Shown here one piece after another: positions 39,180-64,000 of a stretch of DNA of 64,000 bases (its first letter is position 1; each line of letters opens with the position of its first letter). The position numbers were made by a program, and so were the translations under genes. The notes under the pieces are model-generated. The model saw nothing but the letters and a program-made list of their open reading frames with translations, did no database searches and was not told the origin of the DNA. The DNA is from Saprospiraceae bacterium (GTDB lineage: Bacteria > Bacteroidota > Bacteroidia > Chitinophagales > Saprospiraceae), in the NCBI GenBank assembly GCA_027008645.1, contig JALVEE010000121.1:6740-70739 (forward strand), in the 5' to 3' direction.

Positions 39180-42100
39180 ATGGATAGATTCAAATATACA
39201 ATATTATTTTCATTTTTAATTTCCTTTGGTTTTGGTCAGATCACTACCGGCTTTAAGAAATTGAGCGTTCAGGGATATGTATCTCAGAGTATTATCTATA
39301 CAATTGCTCAAGATAGCCTTGGTAATATTTGGGCAGGAACAGAAGAAGGTGTAATGAGATACAATTCAAAAGATTTGTTTTTATACAATAAATACCAAGG
39401 AATGCCTGATTTTGCATCTAACAGGATTTCTGATATTTTTATAGATAGTGAAAATAGAATCTGGGTTGGAGTAGAAACCGGTTTATTGAAGTATGAGCTT
39501 GAAAAAAATATTTTTGTACCGGTTATTCCTGATAAAAATGATAATCTCAATCTGGTAAATTGTATTATTGAAGGAAAGAAAAACAATCTTTGGATAGGAG
39601 ATTTCAATGGATTATGGTTTTTTGATATTAAAACAGACAGTCTTAAAAATGTGTTCAAAGACAAAAGTGTTTTCTCTCTTGAATATACAGGTAATGGACT
39701 TTTAGTAGGAACCAATAAAGGATTGTATTATTTTGATGAAAAAATACAAAAAGCTGAGAAAATCAATATTGATATTAACAATGATAATTTTTCTGTTTCA
39801 TGCATTAAGAAGATTGGGAACAATTATTATATCGGGACAATGGAAAACGGATTATTTCTATTGGACGAAGACAAAAAATTTATTGGGACTGTCGATATAC
39901 CTGTGTTTTCTGATAGATATTTCAGGATAAATTCAATATTAAAACTCAACAATGACCTTGTAGTTATAGGAACAGACGGAGCTGGGCTAATATATCTTGA
40001 CAGGAATAACAATTATATTAATTCTGCTATAAATGATGTGAATGATCCCAACTCAATTTCAAGCAACGGGATATACGATATTTTGCTTGGGAAAGAAAAT
40101 ATTTTATGGATCGCTACGTATGGTGGAGGTATTAATATTTTACCATTCAACAAGCTCAAATTTAGAAATATAAGTCATATTATAAATGACAAAAACAGCC
40201 TGATTTATAATTTCACCAGGGCTATTTGTGAAGATACTCAAAGGAAGATATGGTTTGGAACTAAACAGGGTTTAAGTATTTGGGATAGGGGGCTCAATAA
40301 ATGGATCAATAAACTTGCAATCCAAAAATCATCAAAAGTACCTGATATTATACTTGCTCTTGAAGAAGATGGTGAATATATGTGGATAGCAACATATGGA
40401 AACGGAGTATTTAAAGTTGATAAGCGAGACTACTCATATACTCACTATGGAAATATAAAGAATACCGATAAAAAAATAGGATTGTCCAAAGTTTACTCTT
40501 TATTGAAAGACAGTCATAATAATATATGGCTGGGAGGAATAGACGGGGATTTGCATGAGATAAAAAAAGATGGGGAAATTGTTAGGTATCCAGTTCCCTT
40601 GGTCAAAGATATTATAGAATTGCAAGATGGGGCTATTATCGCAGTAGGTAGAATGGGAGTAAACATTATTAGAAATGGGAAGATAGATACTATAGTTGAG
40701 TTAAGTCAGGGGCATAATGAGCTGCATTATACGACTATTAATTGTGTGAAACAAAACTCAAAAGGTAATTTGATTATTGGTACAAATGGGGAAGGATTGA
40801 TTTTTTATGATATGCATAATAAACTTTTGAAAAAAATAAATATCAGCAATGGAATGCCTTCAGATATAGTTCAGGCTATCCTCATGCAGCAGGATACCGA
40901 CCTTTGGGTTAGCACAACCGGGGGATTGGCACATATTTTTTTAAATAAACAAGATACGGCTATTTACGTCTATAATAAGTTTGACGGGGTGGTTAGCAAT
41001 GAATTTAATTACGGTAGCGCAGCAAAATTGTCAGATGGCTCATTTATGTTTGGAGGAATAGACGGGGTTACAATGTTTGATCCAAAAGCTATAAAACTGC
41101 AAAGAGTAGTTCCCAATGTTGTTATCGAACAATTTAAACTATTCAAAACCAAAGAAACTAAAGACACTTCTTTGACATTATATGTAAACAATGTCAATAA
41201 TTTGCATTTGAGATACAATGAAAATTCATTCAATATAAAATTTGTCGGAATACTGCATAGTGCCCCTTCCAAGGTTTTGTATAGTTGGAAAATGTCAAGG
41301 ATAAATGATATATGGAGTGAGCCTTCAACCGAAACACAAATCAATTTCATAAATCTGTCTCCGGGCAAATATATATTTTATGTTAAGGCTTCCAATAGAG
41401 ACGGTATTTGGAGCCCTGCAAAAATGTTGAGTATTCATATTTCCCCTCCATGGTGGAAAACGACTTTAGCGTATTTATTTTACATTATCTTATTCCTTTT
41501 GGCTGTTGGTGCATTGTTTTACGGGATTAATTTGTATTTGACAAAAAGAAATGCCGAGGAGCAGATCAATTTCTTTAACAGTATTACTCATGAATTGAAA
41601 ACCCCTCTCACCATTTTATTATCAACTATTGAAACATTCCCTAAAATAGCAGATAATCCGGCATTATTGAAAATAAAATCTACTTCAAGGCAGTTGATCA
41701 ATCTGTTTGAACAATTGCTTAATTTTCATCTCGTAACTTCTGATGAGCAAAAGAGCGATAATATTAAAGAGCTGAGTCTTAATACATATATTGGAAAAGT
41801 GATTAGCAGATTCAAACCTTTATTGGAAGAGAAAAGTATTACAGTTGAAGTTGTCAATAAATGGGAAAAAGAAAATCAAAATGACTATTTTTATTATGAT
41901 AAATATATTTTGGATAAAATACTTTTCAATCTGTTGTCAAATGCTATAAAATATTCAAATAAAGGCGGAAAAATCAAAATTGTTTTGGATAAGAAAAAAG
42001 ATGATCTGATTATCTCTATCACGGATAATGGTATTGGAATCCCCAAAGACCAACAAAAATATATACTAAAAAGATATTACAGAGGTCGAAATGCCATAAA

Positions 42101-43091
42101 CAGTAATTTGCCCGGAACAGGACTGGGATTAATGATAGTCAAAAATATTATAGAAAAAGATAAGGGATTTATAAAATTTACCAGTGTTGAAAACAAAGGT
42201 TCTACCTTTACTGTGTCGCTTAAAAACAAAAAGCAACAATTTATTGAAAAAAATAAATTAAAAAATGATGAGGTTCAGCTTCCGGTTGCAGAGAGGGAGG
42301 CTCTCGACGAATATAGCGACAGCAAAATATTAATAGTTGAAGATAATAATGAATTGCGAGCCGATCTAGTTGATAAACTGGGAACATATTTTCAGGTTTA
42401 TGAAGCTGAAAACGGAAAAGAGGGATTAAAAATAGCTATGGATATTTTTCCCGATTTGATAATTACCGATCTTATTATGCCGGAAATGGATGGCTTGGAA
42501 ATGTCCCGTGCATTGCAGGATGACATCAATCTCAATCATATTCCAATTATAATGATGACCGTTTTGACAGGAAATAAACAAAAAATGGAAAGTGTGGAGA
42601 GTGGAATTTCAATTTATTTAGAAAAACCGGTTGATTATAATTATTTATTGGCTAAAGTGATAAATTCGCTGGGTTGGTCAAAAAAATTAAGAGAGAAATA
42701 TCTTCATGAGTTCGACGTGGGAAGTGCAGCTAAGTTTAGGACTCAAAAAGATGCCGACTTCATAAATAAATTGGAAAATTATGTTCTTTCAAATATCAAT
42801 GAAGAAGACCTCTCTGTGCATAATCTTTGCAGTTTTGTCAATATGAGTAGAACTGCCCTTTATATGAAACTTAAAAATATGGTAGATCTTTCACCTCAAA
42901 ACTTTATCATTCATACAAGATTGAAATATGCTAGAAAAAAACTTATAGAAGGTAAGATGAATGTTAAAGAAGTAGCGTATAGTTCAGGTTTTTCCAATCC
43001 AAAATATTTCAGTACATCATTTAAAAAGCTTTTTGGTATTTCTCCGACTACTTTTTTGAAAAATCTGAAAAACAATAATACCGAACAATAA
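39180..43091 (+). CDS. Hybrid two-component system (HTCS) sensor kinase/response regulator with an AraC-type output domain
   Basis: Periplasmic beta-propeller and Y_Y_Y sensor region, one TM helix, H-box FFNSITHELKTPLT, HATPase (GTGLGLMIVK), receiver (ILIVEDNNELR...DLIITDLIMPEMDG) and AraC HTH (VAYSSGFSNPKYFSTSFKKLFGISPTTF). This is the classic Bacteroidota PUL regulator. Confidence 0.93.
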   Translation: MDRFKYTILFSFLISFGFGQITTGFKKLSVQGYVSQSIIYTIAQDSLGNIWAGTEEGVMRYNSKDLFLYNKYQGMPDFASNRISDIFIDSENRIWVGVETGLLKYELEKNIFVPVIPDKNDNLNLVNCIIEGKKNNLWIGDFNGLWFFDIKTDSLKNVFKDKSVFSLEYTGNGLLVGTNKGLYYFDEKIQKAEKINIDINNDNFSVSCIKKIGNNYYIGTMENGLFLLDEDKKFIGTVDIPVFSDRYFRINSILKLNNDLVVIGTDGAGLIYLDRNNNYINSAINDVNDPNSISSNGIYDILLGKENILWIATYGGGINILPFNKLKFRNISHIINDKNSLIYNFTRAICEDTQRKIWFGTKQGLSIWDRGLNKWINKLAIQKSSKVPDIILALEEDGEYMWIATYGNGVFKVDKRDYSYTHYGNIKNTDKKIGLSKVYSLLKDSHNNIWLGGIDGDLHEIKKDGEIVRYPVPLVKDIIELQDGAIIAVGRMGVNIIRNGKIDTIVELSQGHNELHYTTINCVKQNSKGNLIIGTNGEGLIFYDMHNKLLKKINISNGMPSDIVQAILMQQDTDLWVSTTGGLAHIFLNKQDTAIYVYNKFDGVVSNEFNYGSAAKLSDGSFMFGGIDGVTMFDPKAIKLQRVVPNVVIEQFKLFKTKETKDTSLTLYVNNVNNLHLRYNENSFNIKFVGILHSAPSKVLYSWKMSRINDIWSEPSTETQINFINLSPGKYIFYVKASNRDGIWSPAKMLSIHISPPWWKTTLAYLFYIILFLLAVGALFYGINLYLTKRNAEEQINFFNSITHELKTPLTILLSTIETFPKIADNPALLKIKSTSRQLINLFEQLLNFHLVTSDEQKSDNIKELSLNTYIGKVISRFKPLLEEKSITVEVVNKWEKENQNDYFYYDKYILDKILFNLLSNAIKYSNKGGKIKIVLDKKKDDLIISITDNGIGIPKDQQKYILKRYYRGRNAINSNLPGTGLGLMIVKNIIEKDKGFIKFTSVENKGSTFTVSLKNKKQQFIEKNKLKNDEVQLPVAEREALDEYSDSKILIVEDNNELRADLVDKLGTYFQVYEAENGKEGLKIAMDIFPDLIITDLIMPEMDGLEMSRALQDDINLNHIPIIMMTVLTGNKQKMESVESGISIYLEKPVDYNYLLAKVINSLGWSKKLREKYLHEFDVGSAAKFRTQKDADFINKLENYVLSNINEEDLSVHNLCSFVNMSRTALYMKLKNMVDLSPQNFIIHTRLKYARKKLIEGKMNVKEVAYSSGFSNPKYFSTSFKKLFGISPTTFLKNLKNNNTEQ

Positions 43092-43400: not shown

Positions 43401-45059
43401 ATGAAAAATATTGATTTTATTAAAATGTTATTTATTGTTGGTTTCGGATTGCTGTTATCAATAAATTGTAAACCCGAAAAAAAACAAGAAGTTGAGAAAA
43501 AAACTGAAATTCAAAAACCGAATATCGTCTTTTTCATAGCGGATGATATGGAAAGATACATGTTCAATTGCCTGAAAGAAGGTAAAGGTAAAAACCTCTC
43601 GCCTCATCTTGATAAATTGGCAAATGAGGGAGTATTGATGCTAAATCAATATGTTAGTTCTGCTGTTTGTACTCCCAGTAGATTTGGATGTCTTACAGGT
43701 CAATATGCCAGTAGAGCCAAGAGTAAATATATGACAGATTTCACAAAGAAAATGGATGGACAAACTGTTGTACAATGGAATTCCTATATTGTGTCGGGAC
43801 AACCGACTATCGGTACTTATATGAAAGACCTGGGATATACAACAGGATTTTACGGAAAAAATCATGCAGTCGAGGCACCCGGATGGAAAAAACTTCCCCT
43901 AGACACAGATCCAACTACTCCTGAAGCAGTCAAAGTATTGAAAAATAATGCTAAAATAATTAGCGCACAACTAAAAAAATGCGGTTTCGATTATTCCGGA
44001 GGGCTTTATCAAGACAATCCAAGCTATCTCGGTCCTGAAAAATTAAGAGTTCAAAATCTGGATTGGATTACCGATAATGCCTTGGATTTCCTTAACAAAA
44101 CACCGGATAAACCTATATTCCTTTACTATGCCACAACAGTACCACACGGACCATCCAATGCAGAACAATCATGGTTTGGAGACAGAAGAGTTACCGCCGA
44201 AGGAATTTTGGATAAAGCTCCGACCTGTTTACCTCCTAAAGAGACTATTCCAAAACGGCTTATAGAGGCGGGATTGGTAAAAGAAGGAGAAAAAGTTCCC
44301 GATGCATTGGGCAATACTCTGTGGATTGATGATGCTCTTGGTGCATTGATGGACAAACTTGAAGAGCAAGGAAAACTGGATAATACCATTATATTTTTCT
44401 TCAATGACCACGGGCAACATGCCAAAGGTTCTGTATATGAAGGTGGGGTCAGTTCCCCCTCGTTGATTTGGAAAAAAGGAGGATTCAAGACTGGACATGT
44501 TAATAAAGCATTGGTATCAAACATTGATTTCGCCCCCACAATCATAGATATGGCAGGAGGCGATCCTCAAAAGATCAAAGCATTTGACGGCAAGAGCTTT
44601 TTACCAATATTAGATGCAAAAAAAGATAAAATCAGAGAATCGCTCTACTTCGAAATGGGATTCTCACGTGGTATCTTAAAGGACAGCTTCAAATATATAG
44701 CTCTTAGATACCCTGAGTATGCGATGAAATGGGACTTAAAAAAACGTAAGGAAATATTGGATAAATGGAATAACTTTAGAATAAAAAATAAATTGGAATA
44801 TCATTTTACCGATCCGTCTTTACCTTTTTCACATCTTATGTTGATACCCGGTGGAGGCGATGCCGAATTTCCTTCGACTAAAAGATATAAGCATTATTAT
44901 GATACTGATCAATTATACGACTTGAGAACAGATCCGAAAGAACAGAATAATCTATTCAATAATCCAAAATACAAGGATAGAGTTAAAGACTTGCAAAATG
45001 AATTGAAAAAGTATCTCGCTAAACTTCCGGGAAAATTTGGAGAGTTTAAAAAACAATAG
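43401..45059 (+). CDS. S1-family sulfatase (formylglycine-dependent), lipoprotein
   Basis: Lipobox LLLSINC, PNIVFFIADDM, and formylglycine motif SAVCTPSRFGCLTGQYASR. The C-terminal LYDLRTDPKEQNNL is typical of sulfatases. Confidence 0.9.
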   Translation: MKNIDFIKMLFIVGFGLLLSINCKPEKKQEVEKKTEIQKPNIVFFIADDMERYMFNCLKEGKGKNLSPHLDKLANEGVLMLNQYVSSAVCTPSRFGCLTGQYASRAKSKYMTDFTKKMDGQTVVQWNSYIVSGQPTIGTYMKDLGYTTGFYGKNHAVEAPGWKKLPLDTDPTTPEAVKVLKNNAKIISAQLKKCGFDYSGGLYQDNPSYLGPEKLRVQNLDWITDNALDFLNKTPDKPIFLYYATTVPHGPSNAEQSWFGDRRVTAEGILDKAPTCLPPKETIPKRLIEAGLVKEGEKVPDALGNTLWIDDALGALMDKLEEQGKLDNTIIFFFNDHGQHAKGSVYEGGVSSPSLIWKKGGFKTGHVNKALVSNIDFAPTIIDMAGGDPQKIKAFDGKSFLPILDAKKDKIRESLYFEMGFSRGILKDSFKYIALRYPEYAMKWDLKKRKEILDKWNNFRIKNKLEYHFTDPSLPFSHLMLIPGGGDAEFPSTKRYKHYYDTDQLYDLRTDPKEQNNLFNNPKYKDRVKDLQNELKKYLAKLPGKFGEFKKQ

Positions 45060-45079
45060 AAAACAAATAATACGCAACC

Positions 45080-47518
45080 ATGAAATACGGATTTTTTGAT
45101 GATAAGAGAAGAGAATATGTGATTACAAATCCCAAGACTCCATACCCTTGGATAAATTATTTGGGAAATCACGATTTTTTTTCTCTTATATCCAATACTT
45201 CCGGCGGATATTCATTCTATAAAGATGCAAAGTACCGGAGACTGACACGTTACCGTTATAATAATGTACCTACAGACGACGGAGGAAGATATTTCTACAT
45301 TAAAGATGGAGATACGGTTTGGTCTCCCGGATGGAAGCCTGCAAAAACAACCCTTGATAGCTATCAATGCAGACATGGACTGAGTTATACTATCATCCAA
45401 GGTAAAAAGGATGATTTGGAAGTAGAAGTCCTGTATTTTGTTCCTTTGCATTTCACAGGTGAGATTCAAAGGGTGAAATTGAAGAATACCGGAACAAAAA
45501 ATAAATCTTTCAAACTGTTTTCTCTTGTCGAATGGGCATTGTGGAATGCTGAGGACGATATGACCAATTTTCAGAGAAATTTTAATACCGGTCAAGTAGA
45601 AGTTGATGATAGTGTCATTTATCATAAAACAGAATTTAGAGAAAGGAGAAATCATTACGCTTTTCATTCCGTTAACCAAAAACACGATGGATTTGATACT
45701 GACCGTGAGACATTCTTAGGGCTTTATAATGGATTTAATGAACCGCAAAATGTTTTGTCCGGAAAACCTGCTGATTCAATTGCACACGGTTGGTCACCAA
45801 TAGCTTCACATTATTTTGATATAGAACTGGAGCCGGGGGAAGAAAAATCATTGATATTTATGCTTGGTTATGTGGAATTGCCGGAAGAAGATAAATGGGA
45901 ATCGAAAGGTATAATTAATAAAAAACCTGCCGAGGCGATGATTGCAGAATTTGATACTGATGAAAAAATCGAAAAAGCTTTGGAAGAATTGGCTAAATAT
46001 TGGGATGATTTGTTGTCAAAATTCTATTTGAAATCAAGTGATCCTAAATTGAACCGTATGGTCAATATCTGGAATCAATACCAATGCATGATCACATTTA
46101 ATATGTCCAGAAGCGCTTCTTATTTCGAATCGGGAATTGGTAGAGGCATGGGTTTCAGAGACTCAAATCAGGATTTGATCGGTTTTGTTCATCAATCACC
46201 GGATCGGGCTAGACAACGAATAATCGATATCGCTTCAACTCAATTTCCAGACGGTAGCTGTTATCACCAATATCAGCCGTTAACAAAAAGGGGGAATGAT
46301 GCGATTGGAAGTGGCTTTAACGACGACCCTCTATGGTTGATTTTAGGAACAACAGCATACTTAAAGGAAACCGGCGATTTCAGTATTCTGGATGAATCAG
46401 TACCATTTGACAATAACAAAAGCCTTGCAAAATCATTGTTTGACCATTTGACAATATCGTTTGACCATGTGATAAATAATCTCGGACCACACAATCTTCC
46501 GTTGATAGGAAGAGCTGACTGGAATGATTGTCTTAATCTCAATTGTTTTTCCAAAGATCCCAATGAATCATTTCAAACTACTGAAAACAAAACAGAAGGT
46601 TCTAAAGCCGAATCTTTAATGATTGCCGGTCTGTTTGTTGTTTATGGTACGGAATATGTGGAACTATGTAAATTCTTAGATAAAGACAAAGAAGCAAAGA
46701 GAGCTCAAAAACACGTAGATAAAATGATAGAAGCCGTAAAAAAATACGGTTGGGATGGTGAATGGTTTCTCAGAGCCTATGATTTTTTTGGAAATAAAAT
46801 TGGAAGCAATGAAAATGAAGAAGGAAAAATTTTCATTGAATCCAATGGATGGTGCAGTATGGCCGGTATTGGACTTGAAGACGGATTGGTCAAAAAATCA
46901 TTAAACTCAGTTAAGAAATATTTGGATACAGACTATGGTATTATATTAAATAGTCCGAGTTTCACAAAATACTATATCGAAATGGGAGAAATCTCCACTT
47001 ATCCGGAAGGATATAAGGAAAATGGCTCCATATTTTGCCACAACAACCCATGGATTATCATTGCAGAAACCGGTATTGGAAGAGGTGAAATGGCATTTGA
47101 CTATTATAAAAAAATCGCCCCCGCTTATCTGGAGGATATCAGCGATTTACATAGAACAGAACCTTATGTCTATGCACAAATGATTGCAGGTAGAGATGCC
47201 TATAAGCCTGGCGAAGCAAAAAACTCCTGGCTTACCGGTACGGCTGCTTGGAATTATTATGCAGTGACACAATATATTTTGGGAATCAGACCGGATTATG
47301 ACTCACTGATTATCGACCCATGCATTCCGGGATCTTGGAAAGAATTCAAGATTAAAAGAGTTTTTAGAGGAGCGATTTACAATATAGAAGTCAAAAACCC
47401 AAATCACATCTCCAAAGGAATCAATAAGATCATTGTCGATGGAAAAGAACAATCCGGTAACAGATTACCTGTTTTTAAAGAAAAAACAGAACATGATATT
47501 ATAGTAATACTCGGATAA
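45080..47518 (+). CDS. GH94 glycoside phosphorylase, cellobiose phosphorylase-like
   Basis: From memory it aligns nearly end to end with characterised cellobiose phosphorylase (e.g. Cellulomonas/Cellvibrio gilvus CBP). Matching blocks are [130 protein letters not shown] and [11 protein letters not shown]. It has no signal peptide, so it is cytoplasmic. Confidence 0.9.
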
Positions 47519-49140: not shown

Positions 49141-49155
49141 AAGAAGAAGAAGAAT

Positions 49156-53156: not shown

Positions 53157-54133
53157 TTTTAAACTCAAAATTGAATTTTGCTCTATTGCCGGCATTCCTA
53201 ATCAGTTTGTTTACTGTATTTAACTCAATCAACGCTCAAAATGACACCGTAGAAATATACAACAACCATTTAAAGGCAAAAATAGCTTTAAAAGGTGCTG
53301 AGATAATTTCATTGTTTGACAAAACCGATAGTATCGAATATATATGGCAAGGAAGTGATGAGTCTTGGAAGAAACACTCTCCTATCTTGTTCCCTTTTGT
53401 CGGAAAAATCAAAGGGGGCTTTTACAAAATAGCCTGCAAAAAATACAAAATGAAAAACCACGGCTTTGCTTCCCGTAAAATATTTAAAATATCAGAACAA
53501 TCCCCCTCAAAATTAGTCTTAGTCTTGGAAAGTAATCCCTCTACATTAAAAATTTATCCTTTTAAATTCAGATTGACCGTATGTTATTCCTTGGAGGGCA
53601 ATGAACTCAAAGTAACCAATACAGTTGAAAATATCGACACAAAGAATATATTTTTCTCTATAGGAGCGCATCCGGGTTTCAATATCCCATTTGTTCCTAA
53701 TGAAAAATTCGAAGACTACTTCATCGAGTTTGACACAACAGAAGTTGCCGATCGTATCGTTCTTTCCAAGCCAAAAGGATATCCGACTGATAGTTTGCTG
53801 CGCAATTATCTAGGCAATGGTAATATTCTGCCTCTCAACCACGATTTATTCCGGGATAGAGTAATCATCTTAAGGGGATTGAAATCAAAAACATTGACAA
53901 TCAGAAGTAAAAATTCAAAAAGAGGAATACGAGTCAAAGGAATTGATAAATTTCAATATCTGGGCATATGGACTTTTGTGAAAAAAGATGAACCGTTTGT
54001 CTGTATAGAACCTTGGTACGGTATATCCGATTATGTCAATTCATCCGGAGAAATAGCAGAAAAAACAGGGATTCAATCATTGGAATCCGGAAAAGTATTT
54101 AAAATGAAATACAGTATTGAAATACAAAAATAA
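53153..54133 (+). CDS. Aldose 1-epimerase (galactose mutarotase-like, LacX/YihR-type) family protein with a signal peptide
   Basis: SPILFPFVGK, NHGFAS and IGAHPGFNIPF are typical of the mutarotase-like fold. The ATGA start overlaps the stop of the preceding hydrolase. N-terminal signal LPAFLISLFTVFNSINAQ. Confidence 0.75.
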   Translation: MILNSKLNFALLPAFLISLFTVFNSINAQNDTVEIYNNHLKAKIALKGAEIISLFDKTDSIEYIWQGSDESWKKHSPILFPFVGKIKGGFYKIACKKYKMKNHGFASRKIFKISEQSPSKLVLVLESNPSTLKIYPFKFRLTVCYSLEGNELKVTNTVENIDTKNIFFSIGAHPGFNIPFVPNEKFEDYFIEFDTTEVADRIVLSKPKGYPTDSLLRNYLGNGNILPLNHDLFRDRVIILRGLKSKTLTIRSKNSKRGIRVKGIDKFQYLGIWTFVKKDEPFVCIEPWYGISDYVNSSGEIAEKTGIQSLESGKVFKMKYSIEIQK

Positions 54134-54173
54134 AATTTTTAAACAGATGGAATCTTTGATAAAAAATAAACAG

Positions 54174-55870: not shown

Positions 55871-58800
55871 ATGAAAACAAAACTACTTTTTATTATTTCG
55901 ATTTTTTTTCTATCTCTTTCTTTTACCTATGCGCAGAGGACGGTAAAAGGGCAAGTAATAGATAAGGATACCAAAGAACCATTGATTGGGGCATCGGTTG
56001 TCATTCCCAATCTTAACAAAGGGGCAATTACTGATTTGGATGGTAAATTCAGCATTGAATTACCTGCAAACACGGAAAGGATTAGAGTCTCATACATAGG
56101 TTATCAGACTAAAACAGTTAAGCTTGAACCCAACAAAGATGATTATCTCATAAAGCTTGCTTCCGGGAAAGTACTTGATGAGGTTGTCGTGGTAGGATAT
56201 GGAAAATTAAAAAAACGTGACTTGACAGGATCTGTTTCCAAATTGGTGGAAGATCCAAAAACAGCAAGACAGTATAGTGGTGTTGATGAGCTATTGCAAG
56301 GAAGAGTATCGGGAGTAAATGTTACATCCAATGCCGGATCTCCCAATGGTGCTGTCAGTGTCAGAATTAGAGGAATCAATAGTCTTAGAGGAAATAATGA
56401 GCCGCTTTATGTTATTGACGGTGTCATTATTAGTACAGCAGGGGAAGATGTTCTTGAAGCGACTCCTGATGCCAACGAGATGCAAACAGCTCAAAATGGG
56501 CTTACGGGTCTTAATCCGAGGGATATTAAAAGTATTGAGATATTAAAAGATGCTTCAGCAACGGCAATTTACGGGTCGAGAGGTGCTAATGGAGTAGTAT
56601 TGATCACTACAAAAAGCGGTTCAAAAACAGGCGGTAAGCCCAAAATCAGTGCCTATGCTTCAAGTACTATGGCATCAATAACTAAGAAAATTGATATGTT
56701 GGATCCGTTATCATTTGCAAGATATCAAAATGATGCTTTGATTGCCGATGGTAATAACCCAAAATATGTTATTGAAGGCGATAACATTTATTCAATTTCA
56801 GAATACTCTGATACCAATATCGTAAAAAGCCCTGATGCTGCAAAAAAAGTAAACTGGCAAGATGAAATATATCAAAAAGCTATCAGTTACAATACAGGAT
56901 TCTCATTCGGAGGAAAGAAAAATAAGACAGGATACTACTTCTCAGCCGGATTCAATAATATCAACGGGATTGTGGAAACTACAAATCTTAAAAAAGGAGA
57001 TATACGATTGAATCTAAATTCAAGACTAACTTCAAAACTAACTTTTGACAACAGGGTCGCTCTTACATACCAAGAAGGTTCATTTGCTCAAGCAGGAAGT
57101 CGTTCGGGAGGTAATAGAAGTTTCACAAAACAAGTATTAACTTATAGACCGCTGATCGATAAACTTGAAGACGATGTGGATTTGGAAATATCCAACCCGT
57201 ATTCTTGGCTTACCGATTTTGATGACCTGATAAAGGAGTTAAGAGCCAATTTATCAACATCGTTCAATTATGAAATAATAAAAGGTCTCAGTTATACATT
57301 GAGAGGAGGAGTCGATTACAGATTTAAGAATAGGGACAAATGGTACGGTACTGAAATTTTCAAAGGAGCGAAAGTGAATGCATTAGCCGATTATTCGACC
57401 TTAAATAGAAAATCATATACTCTTGACAATATAATAAACTACAATACTAAAATAAATAAAAAACACAGAATTAATTCTATGTTTGCGGTAACTTATGACG
57501 GTGTAATAAGTTCCAATGATATTTTTGAGATAACTGACTTTCCGATTAAAACCCTACGTTCCAAAGCACCTCAATTAGGTCAATTGATTACACAGCCAAG
57601 AACTCTACTGAATAGAGATGAGGCGATTTTCTCCACTTTGGGAAGAGTCAACTACAGTTATAAAAGCAAATATATATTGACAGCAAGTATTAGAGCAGAT
57701 AAGTCTTCCAAGTTTACCAAAGGACGACAATGGGGATACTTCCCGTCAGCATCTTTTGCTTGGAGACTCGGTGAAGAAAAGTTTATAAAAAATCTTAATT
57801 GGTTTTACAATCTAAAATTGAGATTAGGTTGGGGGATAACGGGAAATCAGGGAATACGCCCATATCAAACACTTTCAACATATTCAACAGTTTACTATGT
57901 AGATGGTAGAGACAATACGGTTATTGGTAGTGTACCAAGCAGAATTGCAAACCCGGATTTAACTTGGGAGTCAACCGAACAATATAATTCGGGATTGGAT
58001 ATATCAGTACTTTCAGGAAAGCTGAATTTTGTAATTGATGCCTACTACAAAAAGACCAAAAACCTATTGCAAAATATCAGTTTACCCACCTCAACAGGTT
58101 TTTCAAAAATGACCGTAAACAGGGGTGAAATTGAAAATAAAGGTGTAGAGTTGTCTATGGATGCCGATCTTTTGCGCAAAGATGATTTGAATTTAACAGT
58201 AGGAGGACATATTTCATTCAATAGAAACAAGGTGCTCTCTCTGGGTTTGCCGGCTTCAACTGTTTGGATTGACGGAAAAGAAAGGCAAGAATCATTCTAT
58301 TTTGGTAATTATATATCCACAGGAGGATATTTCAAAGCTCCGGCAAATATATTTATGGAAGGACAACCGATAGGTATGTTTTGGGGATATAAAACTAATG
58401 GAGTATATAAATCACAAGAAGAAGCAGCTGCAGGTCCTACTTATAAAGGCAATGCAAATAAAGCAGGCGATTTGGTTTTTGTAGATGTAAATGGAGATGG
58501 TAATATCAATGATGATGACAGGACTTTCATCGGTAATCCAAATCCGGATTTCACTTATGGATTTGATTTGGTAGCAAAATACAAAAGATTTACAGTCAAA
58601 GCTCTGTTTGACGGAGTATATGGCAATGACATAGCAAATGGTTATAATCTTGAGATTGGTTTTGCCGAAGGGCGATTCAAAAATATATTGAAGAACGCTT
58701 ATGAAAATGCTTGGTCTGAAGAGCATCCTGACAATACAAGACCAAGGTTGAATTACGATTTAATGAACCAAGGATTTGTTGATCTAATCGTAGAGGACGG

Positions 58801-59035
58801 AAGTTATTTCAGATTAAATATACTTACACTTTCTTATGATTTACCTGTAAAAACGTCTTATGTTGACAATGTAAATATTTATGTTTCCGGAAGAAATTTA
58901 TTTTACATAACCAAGTATTCAGGATACGAACCTCAAATAACAAGTTTTCTTGGTGACGGTACTATTATCGGAGTTGATTGGGTAGGAACACCAAACGTGA
59001 GATCATTTTTGTTTGGAGTTAATTTGAGCTTTTAA
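55871..59035 (+). CDS. SusC/RagA-family TonB-dependent outer-membrane transporter
   Basis: Signal peptide, carboxypeptidase-regulatory-like domain (VKGQVIDKDTKEPLIGASVVIPN), plug with VVVGYGKLKKRDLTGSVS and SIEILKDASATAIYGSRGANGVVLITTK, a ~1050-aa barrel and a terminal F. Confidence 0.95.
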   Translation: MKTKLLFIISIFFLSLSFTYAQRTVKGQVIDKDTKEPLIGASVVIPNLNKGAITDLDGKFSIELPANTERIRVSYIGYQTKTVKLEPNKDDYLIKLASGKVLDEVVVVGYGKLKKRDLTGSVSKLVEDPKTARQYSGVDELLQGRVSGVNVTSNAGSPNGAVSVRIRGINSLRGNNEPLYVIDGVIISTAGEDVLEATPDANEMQTAQNGLTGLNPRDIKSIEILKDASATAIYGSRGANGVVLITTKSGSKTGGKPKISAYASSTMASITKKIDMLDPLSFARYQNDALIADGNNPKYVIEGDNIYSISEYSDTNIVKSPDAAKKVNWQDEIYQKAISYNTGFSFGGKKNKTGYYFSAGFNNINGIVETTNLKKGDIRLNLNSRLTSKLTFDNRVALTYQEGSFAQAGSRSGGNRSFTKQVLTYRPLIDKLEDDVDLEISNPYSWLTDFDDLIKELRANLSTSFNYEIIKGLSYTLRGGVDYRFKNRDKWYGTEIFKGAKVNALADYSTLNRKSYTLDNIINYNTKINKKHRINSMFAVTYDGVISSNDIFEITDFPIKTLRSKAPQLGQLITQPRTLLNRDEAIFSTLGRVNYSYKSKYILTASIRADKSSKFTKGRQWGYFPSASFAWRLGEEKFIKNLNWFYNLKLRLGWGITGNQGIRPYQTLSTYSTVYYVDGRDNTVIGSVPSRIANPDLTWESTEQYNSGLDISVLSGKLNFVIDAYYKKTKNLLQNISLPTSTGFSKMTVNRGEIENKGVELSMDADLLRKDDLNLTVGGHISFNRNKVLSLGLPASTVWIDGKERQESFYFGNYISTGGYFKAPANIFMEGQPIGMFWGYKTNGVYKSQEEAAAGPTYKGNANKAGDLVFVDVNGDGNINDDDRTFIGNPNPDFTYGFDLVAKYKRFTVKALFDGVYGNDIANGYNLEIGFAEGRFKNILKNAYENAWSEEHPDNTRPRLNYDLMNQGFVDLIVEDGSYFRLNILTLSYDLPVKTSYVDNVNIYVSGRNLFYITKYSGYEPQITSFLGDGTIIGVDWVGTPNVRSFLFGVNLSF

Positions 59036-59091: not shown

Positions 59092-60651
59092 ATGAAAAAA
59101 ATAAATTTATATATAACAATTATCTTTCTTTCAATCATAGGAATGGTTTCTTGTGAATTGAATGAAAACCCTACATTCTTGAGTTCGAATAATTTATTTG
59201 AGGATGTAGATGGAGCAAAAATAGCTTTAAACGGTGTTTATGCAGGATTGACAGACTATGGTTATCTGGGTTCTGAATATCACCATACCTTGAATTGGAC
59301 ATCAGGGATGTACAACTCCAATAGAGATGCCAGTCTAAAGGACATTGCAGCATTAAACCCCTCCTCAAATGATAAATTTATCACTAATCTTTGGGCAGGG
59401 ATATACAGAACTATAAGTAGAGCTAATAATGTTATTTCTCAATTGGAAGAAAAGGATTTAGGCAATCCGGCTCAAAGGGATTTTATCCTTGGACAAGCAT
59501 TATTCATTAGAGCTTATGCTTATTTTGATTTGGTAAGAATTTTCGGTAGAGCTCCTATTATCACAAAGCCGATAACAAGTGATAATCCTAATTTTGGTCT
59601 GAGTTCATCACAAGATTTATTTGCTCAAATAATAGAAGACGGAGAAAGAGCTGCTACATTATTGCCACCAAAGGGAGATAACGAATTGGGAAGACCTGCA
59701 AATCTTGCTGCAAATATGCTTTTAGCAAAAGTCTATATGTGGATGGCAGGTAACAAAAAAGCATCAGAAACAGATTTGTGGCAAAAAGCTTATGATAATG
59801 CCATAAAAGTATATGGGAATTATAGCCTGGTGGATAATTTTGGAGATTTATGGCAAGATGATACTAGAAATAATACGACAGAATCAATTTTTGAAATAAT
59901 GGGAAATGTCGAAAACTCTTTTAAATTAATCAAGTATTGGAGTGCAGGCAAATCTCACGTTGGAGGTTTGACTTGGGGACGATTTAAACCAAATCTTGAA
60001 GTTTATGATAGACACCTTGCAACTTATCCCGGTGATCCAAGAATTGGATATTCGTTCAAAACCGAATTCAATAAATACAAACCGGATGGAAGTTTTACCC
60101 TTGTCAAAGCGTATCCTAATTACACAAAAAGAAACAATAAGGAAAAGAGCTATCCTTACGGGTATAAGTATTTCATTAAAAACGAACTCGCTCTAAATAC
60201 AGAATCTAATATGAATTATGTAGCTTACAGATATGCAGATTTGTTGTTGATGCTCGCGGAAATAGAAAATGAATTAAATGGTCCCGCAAATGCTTATCAA
60301 TACGTAAACGAAGTATTGACAAGAGCCAGAAATTCTTCAGATACTTTGGTTACAACTCCTGCAAATTGGAGCGGCTTAACTCAAGATTCATTTAGAGAAG
60401 CAATCACAAAAGAGTATTTCTTTGAATTGCAACAAGAAGGACAAGACTTTTTTAATGTCAGAAGAAGAGGCTATGAGTTTTTTAAAGAATTTGTAATCGA
60501 TGCTCATAATAATCACCCTCTCTATGATTTTAAGAAAAAAAGAGATATTGAACTGTTAGACAACAAAAGGATTATGGTCTTACCGATTCCTGATATTGAG
60601 ATTAATTCCAATCCCAAAATCAGTACTTCAGACCAAAATCCGGGGTATTAA
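59092..60651 (+). CDS. SusD/RagB-family nutrient-binding outer-membrane lipoprotein
   Basis: Lipobox IGMVSC. TPR-like SusD core (ALFIRAYAYFDLVRIFG, YRYADLLLMLAEIENEL, FFELQQEGQDFFNVRR). It lies immediately downstream of the SusC-like gene. Confidence 0.92.
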   Translation: MKKINLYITIIFLSIIGMVSCELNENPTFLSSNNLFEDVDGAKIALNGVYAGLTDYGYLGSEYHHTLNWTSGMYNSNRDASLKDIAALNPSSNDKFITNLWAGIYRTISRANNVISQLEEKDLGNPAQRDFILGQALFIRAYAYFDLVRIFGRAPIITKPITSDNPNFGLSSSQDLFAQIIEDGERAATLLPPKGDNELGRPANLAANMLLAKVYMWMAGNKKASETDLWQKAYDNAIKVYGNYSLVDNFGDLWQDDTRNNTTESIFEIMGNVENSFKLIKYWSAGKSHVGGLTWGRFKPNLEVYDRHLATYPGDPRIGYSFKTEFNKYKPDGSFTLVKAYPNYTKRNNKEKSYPYGYKYFIKNELALNTESNMNYVAYRYADLLLMLAEIENELNGPANAYQYVNEVLTRARNSSDTLVTTPANWSGLTQDSFREAITKEYFFELQQEGQDFFNVRRRGYEFFKEFVIDAHNNHPLYDFKKKRDIELLDNKRIMVLPIPDIEINSNPKISTSDQNPGY

Positions 60652-60709: not shown

Positions 60710-60875
60710 AGTTTAACTTTATATAGTCACTTTCTAATAAACATACAAATGGAAAAAAGAATTATGGGTAGGAACAGGACAATAGAAAGAATCATTTTTC
60801 TATTGATATACACAATAATAACTATATTAACATATATGCATTTCGTCGAAGCCTATTAATTTGAAATCATTTAAA

Positions 60876-62501
60876 ATGTCAAAGTCATTTAAAATACTAT
60901 TATTGTTCATCAATTTGTCGCTATTTTCAGTTTCTTGTACCAACAAAGAAGTGAAAAATGAACAAAATGATAAGCCCAATATAATCTATATTATGGCTGA
61001 TGATTTGACAACTCAAGCAATCAGTGCTTACGGTGGGATTTATAAAAATATAGCCCCGACTCCAAATATAGATAAATTGGCTGATGAGGGAATTTTATTT
61101 AAAAATGTGATGTGCACAAATGCTATTTGCGGTCCCAGTAGAGCGGCGATTCTTACCGGCAAATACAGTAATATTAACGGCTATTACAAAAATGAAAGTG
61201 GGGGCAAATTCAATGCTAATCAATGGACATTTCCCCAAGAATTTCAGAAAAAAGGCTACCAGACAAGTTTATTTGGAAAATGGCATCTTGGTTCCGAACC
61301 AAAAGGCTTTGACTTTTATAAATATCATATCAGCAGCGGCCAGCAAGGTGTATATTGGAATCCGGAATACAATGAAAATGGTAAAAAAGTTAAAGAAAAC
61401 GGATATGCTACAAATATAACCGCCGACGCATCTATTGATTGGCTAAAAAAAATCCGGAATAAGAAGAAACCGTTTTTAATGCTCCTCCAGTTTAAAGCAC
61501 CCCACAGACCTTGGGAGCCTGATAAAAAATACGAAAAGCTTTGGGATGATATTGAAATGCCCTACCCCGTCACATTTGACGATGACTATAAAGGTAGAGA
61601 ACTGACAGCAGGCGATACCGAAATGACAATGGATTATCTCGCCAATGCAGACCTCAAATTACCAAAACCCGAAGGTTTGGAAGGAGACAAACTGCTGAAA
61701 TGGATTTTTTATGGAGCAGCTAAAGGTGAGATTGTTCAACCCAAAGGAATGTCAAAAGAAGAAGGCAAAAAATGGCGATATCAGATTTATATCAAAGATT
61801 ATTTAGCTTGTGTAAAATCGATAGATGACAATATCGGAAAACTTTTGACTTACCTTAAACAAAATAATCTTGATAAAAATACGGTAATCGTACTGACTTC
61901 CGATCAGGGATTCTATCTCGGTGAACACGGTTTTTTTGATAAGAGGTTTATATATGAAGAGTCACTTAGAATGCCCTTTATAGTAAGATATCCCGCAAAA
62001 ATCCGGAAAAAACAAATAAATACAGATATCATTTCGAATATAGATTTCGCTCCAACATTTTTGGATTTAGCCCAAATCAAAACCAATGAAAAATTGCAAG
62101 GAAGAAGTTTTGCAAATATTATTAAGGGTAAGCCGCTTAAAAATTGGCGCCAGTCTATGTATTATCATTATTATGAATTTCCCTATTGGCATCATGTTCA
62201 ACCACATTACGGAATAAGGACAAAAAGATATACTTTAGCTCATTTCTACTACAATATTGATAAATGGGAGCTTTATGATTTGGAAAAAGATCCTTATCAA
62301 ATAAATAATATCATTGATTCACCTCAATACGAAGATATTGTTATTAAACTAAAAAAAGAATTAAAACAGTTGCAAAAACAATATGGGGATGACTTGCCAT
62401 TGAAAGCATACCGCGAGATAACCGATAAAGACTTTGGTTATATATCTGACGAAGACAATAATGGTAAAGTCAGAGATATTTTAAAACAAGAAACAAAATA
62501 A
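60876..62501 (+). CDS. S1-family sulfatase, N-acetylglucosamine-6-sulfatase-like
   Basis: Lipobox LSLFSVSC, PNIIYIMADDL, and NAICGPSRAAILTGKYSNINGYY. The C-terminal YYHYYEFPYWHHVQPHYGIRTKRYTLAHFY...WELYDLEKDPYQINN resembles hexosamine/hexose-6-O-sulfatases of Bacteroides. ATG 60876 is preferred over TTG 60861. Confidence 0.9.
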   Translation: MSKSFKILLLFINLSLFSVSCTNKEVKNEQNDKPNIIYIMADDLTTQAISAYGGIYKNIAPTPNIDKLADEGILFKNVMCTNAICGPSRAAILTGKYSNINGYYKNESGGKFNANQWTFPQEFQKKGYQTSLFGKWHLGSEPKGFDFYKYHISSGQQGVYWNPEYNENGKKVKENGYATNITADASIDWLKKIRNKKKPFLMLLQFKAPHRPWEPDKKYEKLWDDIEMPYPVTFDDDYKGRELTAGDTEMTMDYLANADLKLPKPEGLEGDKLLKWIFYGAAKGEIVQPKGMSKEEGKKWRYQIYIKDYLACVKSIDDNIGKLLTYLKQNNLDKNTVIVLTSDQGFYLGEHGFFDKRFIYEESLRMPFIVRYPAKIRKKQINTDIISNIDFAPTFLDLAQIKTNEKLQGRSFANIIKGKPLKNWRQSMYYHYYEFPYWHHVQPHYGIRTKRYTLAHFYYNIDKWELYDLEKDPYQINNIIDSPQYEDIVIKLKKELKQLQKQYGDDLPLKAYREITDKDFGYISDEDNNGKVRDILKQETK

Positions 62502-62538: not shown

Positions 62539-62754
62539 GGGCGCATTTCATTTTTTCGCACTTAATGCTATTTTTTCTATTTGGATAGACCACCCCACTT
62601 ATGAAATTAATACGGCTTAGAAACTACAGCAATGTGCCGTTAGGTACAAAATATGGGTAAAAAATCTATGCCAACTAAAATGCGTGCCATAGGTACGCTA
62701 TTTTAAACATATCAACAAAACTTCTTGTAAAAAAGCCAAAAAATGAAATGCACC
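62539..62754 (+). mobile_element. Full-length ~216-bp MITE-like element with ~20-bp terminal inverted repeats
   Basis: The left ggcgcatttcattttttcgc and right gccaaaaaatgaaatgcacc match at 18 of 20 positions as inverted repeats. The interior is near-identical to 12297-12517. It is non-coding. Confidence 0.75.
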
Positions 62755-62903: not shown

Positions 62904-64000
62904 ATGAAACACAATAATCACTTCAAAGCAATAGCATCTTTGCTCATTTTAATCCTTGCTTTCAATTTGAGTGCACAAAACAAAGCAAAAAACATACTTT
63001 TTATCGCAGTAGATGACTTAAAACCTCTGTTGAGTAACTACGGACATAAAGAAATGCATACACCTAATTTTGACAGACTTGCTAATATGGGGGTTACATT
63101 TACACACGCTTATGTTCAACAAGCAGTATGTGGTCCCTCAAGAGCCAGTGTTATGACAGGAACTCCTCCTGACAGAACAAGAGTTTGGGATTTGCATACC
63201 AATTTTAGAGAAGCTAATCCTAATCTTGTATCTATGCCGGAATATCTTACTTCTCAAGGATATGAGACGACAGCGATAGGAAAAATATATCACAAAGGCT
63301 CCGCATCTCCCGGACACGATGGGAAATCGTGGAGTATTCCCCATATCATTCCAAGGGATTACGATCCTAAATATGGAGAACCCGCTTTGGAATACTATCA
63401 AAAACCTGAAACAAAAAAAGAAATCGAAAGGCTCGCCAAGGAACTGGTATCTCAGGGGGTCAAAGGTGGTTTGAGAACAAAAATAATGAAAAGGATAAAG
63501 CCCAGTACCGAAATGGTAGATGTTTCTGACGAAGCATATCAAGACGGAATATATACAAAAGAAGCCCTTAAGAGAATGAGAAAACTGGCTAAAGGAGATA
63601 AGCCTTTTTTCCTCGGCGTAGGATTCCAAAAACCACATCTGCCTTTTATAGCCCCTAAAAAATATTGGGATTTATACGATCGTGACAAAATAAAACTATC
63701 ACCCCAACAATCATATAGTGACGGTACTCCTAAAATAGCATACCATACCTATGGTGAATTAAGAGCCTATACCGATATACCTAATAAAGTCAAAAAAGGC
63801 GTGCCCCTACCGGAAGATAAACAAAGGCAACTTATCCACGGATATATGGCCGCTGTATCATACATAGATGCACAATTAGGAAAAATTTTGGATGAATATG
63901 AAAGATTGGGACTTGATAAAAATACAATTATAGTCCTATGGGGAGATCACGGTTATCATCTTGGTGACCATACTTTGTGGTGCAAACACAGTAACTTTGA
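62904..64000 (+). CDS. S1-family sulfatase, iduronate-2-sulfatase-like, C-terminally truncated by the window edge (absent from the ORF track)
   Basis: ATG 62904 is followed by a frame open to base 64000. Signal peptide AIASLLILILAFNLSAQ. NILFIAVDDLKPLLSNYGH...QQAVCGPSRASVMTGTPPD, FQKPHLPF and WGDHGYHLGDH. It is a paralog of 54174-55643. Confidence 0.9.
   Translation, partial: MKHNNHFKAIASLLILILAFNLSAQNKAKNILFIAVDDLKPLLSNYGHKEMHTPNFDRLANMGVTFTHAYVQQAVCGPSRASVMTGTPPDRTRVWDLHTNFREANPNLVSMPEYLTSQGYETTAIGKIYHKGSASPGHDGKSWSIPHIIPRDYDPKYGEPALEYYQKPETKKEIERLAKELVSQGVKGGLRTKIMKRIKPSTEMVDVSDEAYQDGIYTKEALKRMRKLAKGDKPFFLGVGFQKPHLPFIAPKKYWDLYDRDKIKLSPQQSYSDGTPKIAYHTYGELRAYTDIPNKVKKGVPLPEDKQRQLIHGYMAAVSYIDAQLGKILDEYERLGLDKNTIIVLWGDHGYHLGDHTLWCKHSNF

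Follow-up and report, generated by a model that had tools for sequence, protein, structure and literature searches.

Which glycan would be degraded by a locus that combines formylglycine sulfatases with two cytoplasmic-type phosphorylases of family GH94? The question is raised by positions 39180 to 64000 of a 64,000-nucleotide stretch of DNA from a Saprospiraceae bacterium (GenBank assembly GCA_027008645.1, contig JALVEE010000121.1, positions 6,740 to 70,739 of the forward strand), hereafter called the window. We found that this region is a polysaccharide utilization locus (PUL) and that its pairing of sulfatases with GH94 enzymes recurs in other marine bacteria. A PUL is in itself a known kind of system; the conserved combination of sulfatases and GH94 enzymes appears to be new. 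We consider it reasonably likely that the locus serves a sulfated β-glucan with a β-1,4-linked, cellulose-like backbone.

Gene content and sulfatases of the locus

The gene map of the window was derived from the listing of open reading frames (ORFs) and from Pfam scans. It comprises the following genes:

39180..43091, + strand: hybrid two-component system (HTCS) regulator, 1303 amino acids (Pfam Reg_prop, Y_Y_Y, HisKA, HATPase_c, Response_reg, HTH_18)
43401..45059, + strand: Sulf-A, S1 formylglycine sulfatase with a lipoprotein leader (Pfam Sulfatase 148 bits, CTPSR)
45080..47518, + strand: GH94-1, canonical, predicted cytoplasmic cellobiose phosphorylase, 812 amino acids (Pfam 573 + 288 bits)
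47552..48997, + strand: GPH-family (MFS_2) glycoside:cation symporter, 481 amino acids (MFS_2 256 bits, TIGR00792 gph 204 bits)
49156..51564, + strand: GH94-2, divergent, predicted cytoplasmic GH94 phosphorylase, 802 amino acids (Pfam 447 + 177 bits)
51576..53156, + strand: GH-A, GH51-like (beta/alpha)8 hydrolase lipoprotein, 526 amino acids, candidate endo-β-glucanase (weak Pfam GH39/GH44, fold)
53153..54133, + strand: putatively secreted aldose 1-epimerase (mutarotase)-like protein, 326 amino acids (Pfam Aldose_epim 106 bits, leader resembling a signal peptidase I [SPI] type)
54117..55643 (probable start 54147), + strand: Sulf-B, S1_7-like sulfatase lipoprotein (CGPSR)
55871..59035, + strand: SusC-like TonB-dependent transporter (TIGR04056 839 bits, Pfam CarbopepD_reg_2 and Plug)
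59092..60651, + strand: SusD-like surface glycan-binding lipoprotein (Pfam SusD_RagB and SusD-like_3)
60861..62501, + strand: Sulf-C, S1_11-like exo-6-O-sulfatase lipoprotein (5G2V 442 bits, CGPSR)
62904..64000, + strand: Sulf-D, N-terminal 365 amino acids, S1_7-like domain, running off the window (6HHM 253 bits, CGPSR)

Adjacent susC-like and susD-like genes, colocated on one strand with two GH94 enzymes, a GH51-like hydrolase, four sulfatases and an HTCS regulator, identify the region as a PUL. The ORFs and Pfam matches reproduced exactly the gene order, from the HTCS to a second "IDS-like" sulfatase on one strand, that had been proposed in an earlier reading of the bare sequence (the original prediction). 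Its further claims, that all four sulfatases keep C-x-P-S-R and bear leaders and that the phosphorylases lack them, held as well. Indeed, lipoprotein leaders (ending in a cysteine) or SPI-type leaders, judged by eye from the N termini, precede the sulfatases, GH-A, the epimerase, SusC, and SusD, whereas GH94-1 and GH94-2 have none and begin like the cytoplasmic C. thermocellum enzyme. An NCBIfam scan of the locus proteins returned generic names throughout and no match for either GH94. The closest genome was a metagenome-assembled genome (MAG) labelled Saprospiraceae, with 87 to 98% protein identity.

The four sulfatases of the window scored 135 to 189 bits against Pfam Sulfatase, and all carry the maturation motif in the general form C/S-x-P-x-R. 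The labels S1_51, S1_7, S1_11, and S1_16 used here denote the nearest solved structures, not SulfAtlas subfamily profiles or phylogeny. For Sulf-A, the best PDB match was 9FVT (207 bits, full length), which is the S1_51 enzyme OpSulf1 (PMC13063451). Sulf-B and Sulf-D scored 286 and 253 bits, respectively, against 6HHM, described in PMC9096561 as P18_S1_7, the ulvan endo-xylose-2-sulfatase of Formosa agariphila. They scored 247 and 214 bits against human iduronate-2-sulfatase, in agreement with their earlier "IDS-like" label. Similarly, the label "GlcNAc/Glc-6-sulfatase-like" suits Sulf-C, which reached 442 bits with the N-acetylglucosamine (GlcNAc)-6-sulfatase 5G2V and 354 bits with the exo-L-galactose-6-sulfatase 7LHA. 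S1_11 takes in a mannose-6-sulfate sulfatase too (PMC13063451). The nearest S1_11 relatives of Sulf-C are exo-6-O-sulfatases for 6-sulfated GlcNAc, L-galactose, and mannose. Akkermansia sulfatase structures (9S8Y and others) were also tried as a guide but proved to be mucin enzymes and were of no added help. No gene for a formylglycine-generating enzyme (FGE) or an anaerobic sulfatase-maturating enzyme (anSME) was found within the 64-kb window, and such a gene may sit elsewhere in the genome.

The original prediction held that the locus continues past the edge and called for a look downstream of position 64000. Exact-sequence look-ups with Sulf-C and GH94-2 gave no match, whereas that with SusD led to a metagenome contig (L001) whose proteins are 100% identical to those of the window over the shared part and which supplied the genes that follow. 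Full-length Sulf-D (L001:13813-17022) is a 1069-amino-acid fusion of the S1_7-like domain, a linker, and a second sulfatase domain that is closest to the S1_16/S1_15 type (6UST, 260 bits; 9FO1, 253 bits). Next comes a 486-amino-acid S1_16-like lipoprotein sulfatase, and L001 ends about 190 bp past it, at the start of another lipoprotein gene. The predicted number of four sulfatases thus stands for the genes of the window, whereas the locus overall contains at least six sulfatase domains. The linker of Sulf-D spans about 50 residues and is rich in Lys and Asn (…KKDKNHKRKKNKKNKKNKKHKKNKKNKKGK…), and the protein terminates in a poly-Lys tail. Both stretches are polycationic, and the expected substrate of the enzyme is a polyanionic glycan.

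An exact 50-nucleotide DNA search of the metagenome collection for sequence past the end of L001 gave no match, and a protein-based scan found only a 75 to 81% relative, L084. There (L084:3132-15624), the relatives of the downstream sulfatases are succeeded by two proteins in which a type IX secretion system (T9SS) tail is the only Pfam domain, then by a GH29 fucosidase, a 601-amino-acid protein without Pfam domain, a sulfatase, and a GH10 enzyme. Since this contig starts at the sulfatase fusion, its tie to the GH94 module is not demonstrable.

The two GH94 enzymes and the GH51-like hydrolase

GH94-1 has the supersandwich and catalytic domains of family GH94, the DWND motif with the catalytic Asp, and the phosphate-binding His. 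It scored 1350 bits against C. thermocellum cellobiose phosphorylase (CBP; 3QDE) and 1129 bits against C. gilvus CBP. In the alignment, it retains the equivalents of N156, N163, Q165, R166, the T508 loop, E649, Y653, K658/E659, and H666/N667, including the whole CBP acceptor site (Q165, R166, E649, Y653, N667, and the 495-513 loop in C. gilvus numbering). We take the roles of several of these residues to be those described in the structure papers on the C. gilvus enzyme. By any sequence criterion, GH94-1 is a CBP.

GH94-2 is only 39% identical to GH94-1. It is a GH94 enzyme with the DWND catalytic motif and the phosphate-binding His, and it keeps N163 and the equivalent of Tyr653 (Tyr630). Among the GH94 enzymes of solved structure, CBP (568 bits) and chitobiose phosphorylase (494 bits) are at a similar distance from it, and the cellodextrin (78 to 84 bits), cellobionic-acid, and laminaribiose phosphorylases are much more remote. 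Of the CBP acceptor site, the Y653 equivalent alone is kept: N156 is changed to D, Q165/R166 to D169/W170, E649 to G626, and N667 to S644 (CBP numbering first), and a 19-amino-acid loop carrying T508 is deleted. A classical cellodextrin phosphorylase (CDP) was considered and rejected for GH94-2, which scores about 80 bits with those enzymes and is without their N-terminal extension.

This acceptor site has an engineered counterpart. C. uda CBP carrying N156D/N163D/T508I/E649G/N667A no longer needs a free anomeric hydroxyl, accepts cellobiose, and makes mainly cellotriose (PMC8140972). GH94-2 is alike at four of these five positions: it has Asp at position 156, Gly at position 649, and Ser, a small residue, at position 667, and it lacks the T508 loop. 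It differs in being a natural enzyme, 39% identical to CBP, that keeps N163 and adds the change of Q165/R166 to D/W. From the likeness of this remodelled +1 site to that of the cellotriose-forming enzyme, we infer that GH94-2 may handle oligomers or glucosides that carry a substituent at C1 of the +1 sugar. The GH94-2 clade was found in at least 592 species, and its acceptor site would make it relevant to the enzymatic synthesis of cello-oligosaccharides. The original prediction had the substrate "trimmed to disaccharides" before import; this is doubtful, because the acceptor site of GH94-2 suggests that oligosaccharides of more than two units are imported.

The same position Tyr630 bears on another substrate. 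The polymer could be built of amino sugars (a sulfated chitin- or glycosaminoglycan-like glycan), with GH94-2 being of the chitobiose type and the S1_11 enzyme a GlcNAc-6-sulfatase, and a "glucosaminoglycan-like" polymer had indeed been offered as an alternative. The modest distance between the scores of GH94-2 with chitobiose phosphorylase and CBP, a short catalytic loop common to both, the fact that the best-studied S1_11 member is a GlcNAc-6-sulfatase, and the action of IDS-like sulfatases on glycosaminoglycans all speak for it. However, at the position of Tyr630 in GH94-2, chitobiose phosphorylase has a Val that gives space for the N-acetyl group, and GH94-2 is not closest to that enzyme. 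Furthermore, GH18, GH20, GH84, GH88, PL8-type, GlcNAc kinase, and deacetylase genes were absent from the locus and from its relatives, nonmarine members of the clade adjoin cellulases, and the partner paralogue GH94-1 is a bona fide CBP. An amino-sugar polymer is therefore disfavoured, and we regard it as highly improbable. The identification of GH94-2 as a chitobiose phosphorylase was rejected on similar grounds (Tyr instead of Val, no chitin genes, relatives adjoining cellulases).

The hydrolase GH-A (51576-53156) has weak Pfam matches to GH39/GH44, and GH51 arabinofuranosidases match it at 1e-21 over residues 169 to 351, a third of the protein. Its AlphaFold (AF2) model, built with 30 homologues, had a pLDDT of 89, and the best Foldseek matches were GH51 arabinofuranosidases (TM score 0.64 to 0.73, at most 20% identity), followed by GH44 glucanases and xyloglucanases, in support of the earlier "GH51-like" label. 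The model appears to have the GH51 fold, a (beta/alpha)8 barrel with a C-terminal beta-sandwich, a GNE acid/base Glu, and a nucleophile Glu after strand 7; the glutamates E220 (GNE) and E341 (TEW) are invariant in 30/30 homologues. Additionally, GH-A shares 27% identity (E value of 3e-27) with the catalytic portion of a CBM30-CBM11 protein from Fibrobacter. The GH51 enzyme FSU_0382 of F. succinogenes, shown by experiment to be a cellulase, has the layout of this protein (PMC3079729). Nearly all of the 111 homologues at an E value of ≤1e-10 are unnamed, and three are automatically labelled "alpha-L-arabinofuranosidase." GH-A could thus be a distant GH51 or belong to an unclassified family of clan GH-A.

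Recurrence of the sulfatase-GH94 pairing

A profile of the GH94-2 clade was scanned against one genome per species, the best 80 loci of the at least 592 carriers were kept, and the window proteins were compared with these loci by tblastn. Sulfatases lay within 10 kb of GH94-2, our definition of a sulfatase neighbourhood, in 18 of these best 80 species loci. All 18 belong to one of three marine lineages, namely, Flavobacteriales/Saprospiraceae, Kiritimatiellota with unclassified "Verrucomicrobiota" MAGs, and Opitutales/Puniceicoccales/Coraliomargaritaceae. The sulfatases are all on the strand of GH94-2 in 14 of these 18 loci. Typically, at most one gene separates GH94-2 from the nearest sulfatase in the loci of Bacteroidota and Kiritimatiellota.

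The same kinds of proteins recur in these neighbourhoods. Sulf-A homologues with CTPSR and 45 to 51% identity were found near GH94-2 in the loci of nine other species, besides a 93% copy in the near-identical locus L003. Homologues of the S1_7-like sulfatases (36 to 70%) and closer S1_11-like ones (40 to 70%) stand, like those of Sulf-A, beside GH94-2 and the symporter in Flavobacteriaceae, Kiritimatiellota, and Opitutales/Puniceicoccales. Among them, Sulf-B homologues at 67 to 70% lie directly 3' of GH94-2 in L005, L009, and L012, and a Sulf-C homologue at 70% occurs in the Polaribacter locus L009. The symporter is directly 5' of GH94-2 in 12 marine loci of other species (61 to 83% identity; 98% in L003). 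HTCS homologues (40 to 47% identity) flank L005 and L012, and epimerase homologues are present in L003, L005, and L017. Five of the loci read as follows:

Polaribacter sp. R77954 (L009): SusC-SusD-S1_11-GH1-MFS-GH94_2-S1_7-GH3-(beta-helix T9SS protein)-GH5-SulfA-S1_7
Flavobacteriaceae MAG (L083): SASA esterase-GH94-MFS-GH94-S1_7-GH3-GH5-SulfA-HTCS
Hyunsoonleella jejuensis (L012): HTCS-MFS-GH94-MFS-GH94-S1_7-GH3
Marine PVC contig (L090): GH94-esterase-MFS-GH94-GHA-SulfA-GH12 (weak match)-S1_11-MFS
Pontiella sulfatireligans (L002): GH94-MFS-GH94-GH10-GHA-SulfA-CE2-GHA-GH1

The protein between GH3 and GH5 in the Polaribacter locus (L009:15765-17444) is a T9SS-tailed right-handed beta-helix protein (Beta_helix, DUF5123-like), a candidate secreted depolymerase that is absent from the window.

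In a neighbor-joining tree of GH94-2, the Flavobacteriales/Saprospiraceae and the Kiritimatiellota-type lineages share a subclade, with 70 to 76% identity across phyla. The GH94-2 of the window is only 63% identical to the Bacteroidales sequences. That the identity across phyla exceeds the identity to Bacteroidales suggests a horizontal spread of GH94-2. In the marine PVC-group contig (L090:1-4417 and 4891-20381), the whole cassette immediately adjoins the gene of a phage-type integrase and the toxin-antitoxin genes Fic and HipA, a neighbourhood consistent with a mobile island and in line with the similarity of GH94-2 across phyla.

The 62 other loci, without sulfatases within 10 kb, come from Fibrobacter, Anaerolineae, Clostridia, Spirochaetota, myxobacteria, and others. 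A CBP-like paralogue is frequently adjacent in these loci, and at least some contain cellulases. Among the nonmarine members of the clade, which are free of sulfatases, the Fibrobacter GH94-2, for instance, has a GH51-type CBM30/CBM11 protein and a GH9 enzyme as partners. In a Melioribacteraceae genome (L091:12687-16856), GH94-2 is likewise free of sulfatase neighbours; it adjoins a 1088-amino-acid BNR/sortilin-repeat protein and an esterase, and GH130, GH2, and MFS genes are located close by.

Could the region be two independent neighbours, namely, an operon for cellodextrin or cellobiose uptake and phosphorolysis beside a sulfatase-rich PUL for an unrelated sulfated glycan? The 62/80 species loci in which the GH94 pair occurs without any sulfatase are compatible with this, as is the high background of chance adjacency in sulfatase-rich phyla. 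Within the window, a perfect 16-bp hairpin (60675-60709), 24 bp 3' of the susD stop, is the strongest terminator-like structure of the locus, and a weaker one (62682-62698) is located 3' of Sulf-C, so that the region probably forms several transcripts. Only the positions of these two intergenic hairpins were used from the promoter and terminator scan, in which the frequency of promoter- or terminator-like sites in the window was not above that in shuffled sequence and the sigma-70 model is unsuited to Bacteroidota.

The block from Sulf-A to Sulf-B nevertheless ties sulfatases and phosphorylases together. Sulf-A ends 21 bp before GH94-1, the gaps that follow are 34, 159, and 12 bp, and two overlapping ORF pairs close the block, the last being that of the epimerase and Sulf-B. 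No terminator-like hairpin was found in the intergenic gaps of 43401-55643. Furthermore, homologues of the same sulfatases recur beside GH94-2 in three lineages with varied gene orders, and a single HTCS flanks the whole set in the window, L005, and L012. Flavobacteriaceae, in which fewer sulfatases would be expected, still carry two to four sulfatases in these loci and one in the compact Hyunsoonleella locus. We therefore judge two independent units to be improbable, and the pairing of sulfatases with GH94 is, to judge from its genomic distribution, not a chance neighbourhood. The simplest reading would be that an old cello-oligosaccharide phosphorolysis pair was joined to a recurring sulfatase set in marine glycan specialists.

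Predicted pathway, substrate, and relation to known systems

For a sulfated β-glucan, the locus would work as follows. Sulfated oligomers would be taken up by SusD/SusC, and lipoprotein or periplasmic S1 sulfatases would then remove the sulfate esters, the set being one S1_51-like enzyme (possibly endo-acting), two S1_7-like ones, one S1_11-like exo-6-O-sulfatase, and two S1_16-like ones past the window. The GH51-like hydrolase would cleave the desulfated chain to short cello-oligosaccharides, the anomers of which would be equilibrated by the periplasmic mutarotase, and di- and trisaccharides would enter via the GPH symporter. In the cytoplasm, GH94-2 would phosphorolyse glucosyl units from oligomers with a reducing-end glucose still substituted at C1, and the remaining cellobiose would be split by GH94-1, yielding glucose-1-phosphate with no ATP spent. 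The HTCS would detect a breakdown product and induce the locus. In the Polaribacter locus L009, a GH1 β-glucosidase stands in place of GH94-1, while MFS and GH94-2 are retained, in agreement with an order in which GH94-2 would attack the imported oligomer before a second enzyme finishes the disaccharide. The original proposal of a single unit that couples periplasmic desulfation, import, and cytoplasmic phosphorolysis of a sulfated gluco-polymer is thus supported by the linkage, the recurrence, and the partner enzymes.

The nature of the substrate is suggested by several lines of evidence. Relatives of the locus sulfatases target 6-O- and 2-O-sulfated pyranoses, which we count for a sulfated β-glucan, and the backbone would probably bear sulfate at O-6 and O-2 and perhaps elsewhere. 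The partner carbohydrate-active enzymes (CAZymes) of the marine loci, GH5, GH3, GH1, and a weak GH12 match, fit a β-glucan as well, as do the GH51 endoglucanase-type protein and the GH9 enzyme of Fibrobacter. A natural sulfated glucan occurs in red-algal walls (Lechat et al. 2000, as cited in PMC8307928). It is the natural source of sulfated glucan known to us and a minor component of these walls. The red-algal glucan is said to be a β-1,4-glucan sulfated at C6, and the 6-O-sulfatase-type enzymes of the locus would fit such a polymer.

A number of points weigh against this substrate. S1_7 also holds a galactose-4-sulfatase, the S1_16-like domains resemble galactose or N-acetylgalactosamine sulfatases, and six is a large number of sulfatase domains for a plain homoglucan. 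GH-A, at most 20% identical to solved GH51 enzymes, could be an exo-acting debranching enzyme instead of an endoglucanase, and the GH5 of the marine partners could be a mannanase instead of a cellulase. A characterised but structurally unsolved CBP could fall in the GH94-2 clade. Kiritimatiellota are so rich in sulfatases that adjacency alone has little weight there. Finally, the GH29, GH10, and T9SS proteins of L084 and the GH10 and CE2 of Pontiella hint at a heteroglycan.

Indeed, since the presence of S1_7- and S1_16-like enzymes implies that there are additional sulfate positions or sugars, a sulfated heteropolysaccharide is a serious rival. In such a polymer, β-glucosyl linkages would be one element only, the window would be part of a larger island, and the GH94 enzymes would salvage glucose-containing fragments. 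Such a polymer might be an algal hemicellulose that resembles xyloglucan or glucoxylan, or a sulfated glycan with fucose or xylose. CBP-type enzymes tolerate acceptor changes at C2 and C6, including xylose, and S1_7 relatives target xylose-2-sulfate in ulvan. In Pontiella, the GH10 gene is directly 3' of GH94-2 and CE2 is nearby, and the BNR/sortilin protein that adjoins the Melioribacteraceae GH94-2, together with an esterase, is one which we take to be of the GH74 xyloglucanase type. The six sulfatase domains, being of four types, suggest several sulfate contexts. The relative of the downstream part, L084, adds GH29 and GH10 behind its sulfatases, along with T9SS proteins, and the substrate may therefore be more complex than a plain glucan. 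On the other hand, the window and the compact relatives L012 and L090 are devoid of fucosidases, xylosidases, GH31 enzymes, and lyases, the contig of L084 shows no link to the GH94 module, and nonmarine members of the GH94-2 clade adjoin cellulases. Taken together, we consider a heteropolysaccharide rather unlikely, and a sulfated, cellulose-like β-glucan remains our preferred substrate.

A broader hypothesis, which we put forward tentatively and with some doubt, is that the S1_51-like, S1_7, and S1_11 sulfatases, the GH51-like glucanase, the GPH symporter, and GH94-2 form a dedicated cassette, selected by a common sulfated cellulose-like β-glucan that algae or other marine producers would release, and spread horizontally through Bacteroidota, Kiritimatiellota, and Opitutales/Puniceicoccales. 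GH94-2 would then represent a new short-form GH94 specificity for cello-oligosaccharides or reducing-end-substituted β-glucosides.

Among known systems, the PUL for sulfated alpha-1,3-mannan of Polaribacter and Ochrovirga pacifica is also a marine Bacteroidota PUL for a C6-sulfated hexose homopolymer. In that system, an S1_51 endo-sulfatase, then a backbone hydrolase, and then an S1_11 exo-6-sulfatase act in turn (PMC13063451), a logic that resembles that of the locus; the nearest solved structure to Sulf-A is its S1_51 enzyme, and Sulf-C is S1_11-like. However, the mannan PUL uses GH195 and GH92 mannosidases to free mannose, whereas the present locus has no mannosidases and instead contains a GH51-like enzyme, a GPH symporter, two GH94 enzymes, and S1_7- and S1_16-like sulfatases.

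A second comparison is with the cellulolytic CBP and CDP systems of C. thermocellum and Fibrobacter, in which cytoplasmic GH94 enzymes also turn imported cello-oligosaccharides into glucose-1-phosphate. As in these systems, the GH94-2/CBP pair adjoins cellulases in Fibrobacter and Clostridia. Unlike enzymes of the CDP type (about 980 to 1000 amino acids), the second enzyme described here has about 800 amino acids and an acceptor site of its own, and its score with CDPs does not exceed the 84 bits given above. C. thermocellum takes up cellodextrins by an ABC transporter (Nataf et al. 2009, as cited in PMC3079729), in place of which a GPH symporter behind SusC/D would serve here, and the present module is embedded among sulfatases.

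The PUL for ulvan is built on ulvan lyases, unsaturated-uronate hydrolases, and rhamnosidases. The F. agariphila version (Reisky et al. 2019, summarised in PMC9096561) is likewise sulfatase-rich and marine, and Sulf-B and Sulf-D are closest to its P18_S1_7. Unlike it, the window has no lyase or rhamnosidase Pfam domain, and the ulvan PUL is without GH94 and yields products that are not β-glucosides. More generally, the backbone enzymes of characterised sulfated-glycan PULs comprise ulvan lyases and GH105/GH78; GH16/GH82/GH150 and GH127/129; GH86/GH117; GH29/GH107/GH168; and GH92/GH195. Neither a lyase nor any Pfam-modelled GH family of this list was found in 39180-64000 or L001, which is a partial test, as several of the families have no Pfam model. 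The original prediction knew of no characterised PUL that pairs sulfatases with GH94 phosphorylases, and we likewise found neither such a PUL nor sulfated-glucan catabolism in the open-access full-text literature, where absence is no proof.

A large pool of marine carbon, in part recalcitrant, consists of sulfated algal glycans. The known bacterial pathways address galactans, fucans, ulvan, and, recently, sulfated mannan, and the locus predicts a further class, sulfated β-glucan. Its candidate endo-sulfatase, exo-6-sulfatase, and GH51-like glucanase could serve as tools for detecting this type of glycan in algae or seawater and for measuring its amount. Variants of the locus are carried by the cultured strains Polaribacter sp. 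R77954, Hyunsoonleella jejuensis DSM 21035, and Pontiella sulfatireligans F21.

The HTCS gene marks the start of the locus, since the genes upstream of it (cytochrome c assembly, DUF5686, and NQR genes) are on the opposite strand. The nearest of them (35303-38395, - strand) is a single 1030-amino-acid ORF with ResB-like and CcsA-like (Cytochrom_C_asm) domains, divergent from the HTCS gene across a gap of 785 bp. The rest of the window consists of housekeeping genes, including GldH and T9SS-tailed proteins, which are marks of a Bacteroidota genome. When related CAZymes, further sulfatases, and FGE or anSME genes were sought in positions 1 to 39000, only housekeeping genes and one CBM9-GHL10 protein were found. 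The latter (12752-14527, - strand) has 591 amino acids, with CBM9-like and GHL10 (glycosyl hydrolase-like 10) domains, and it is isolated among the housekeeping genes, outside the PUL.

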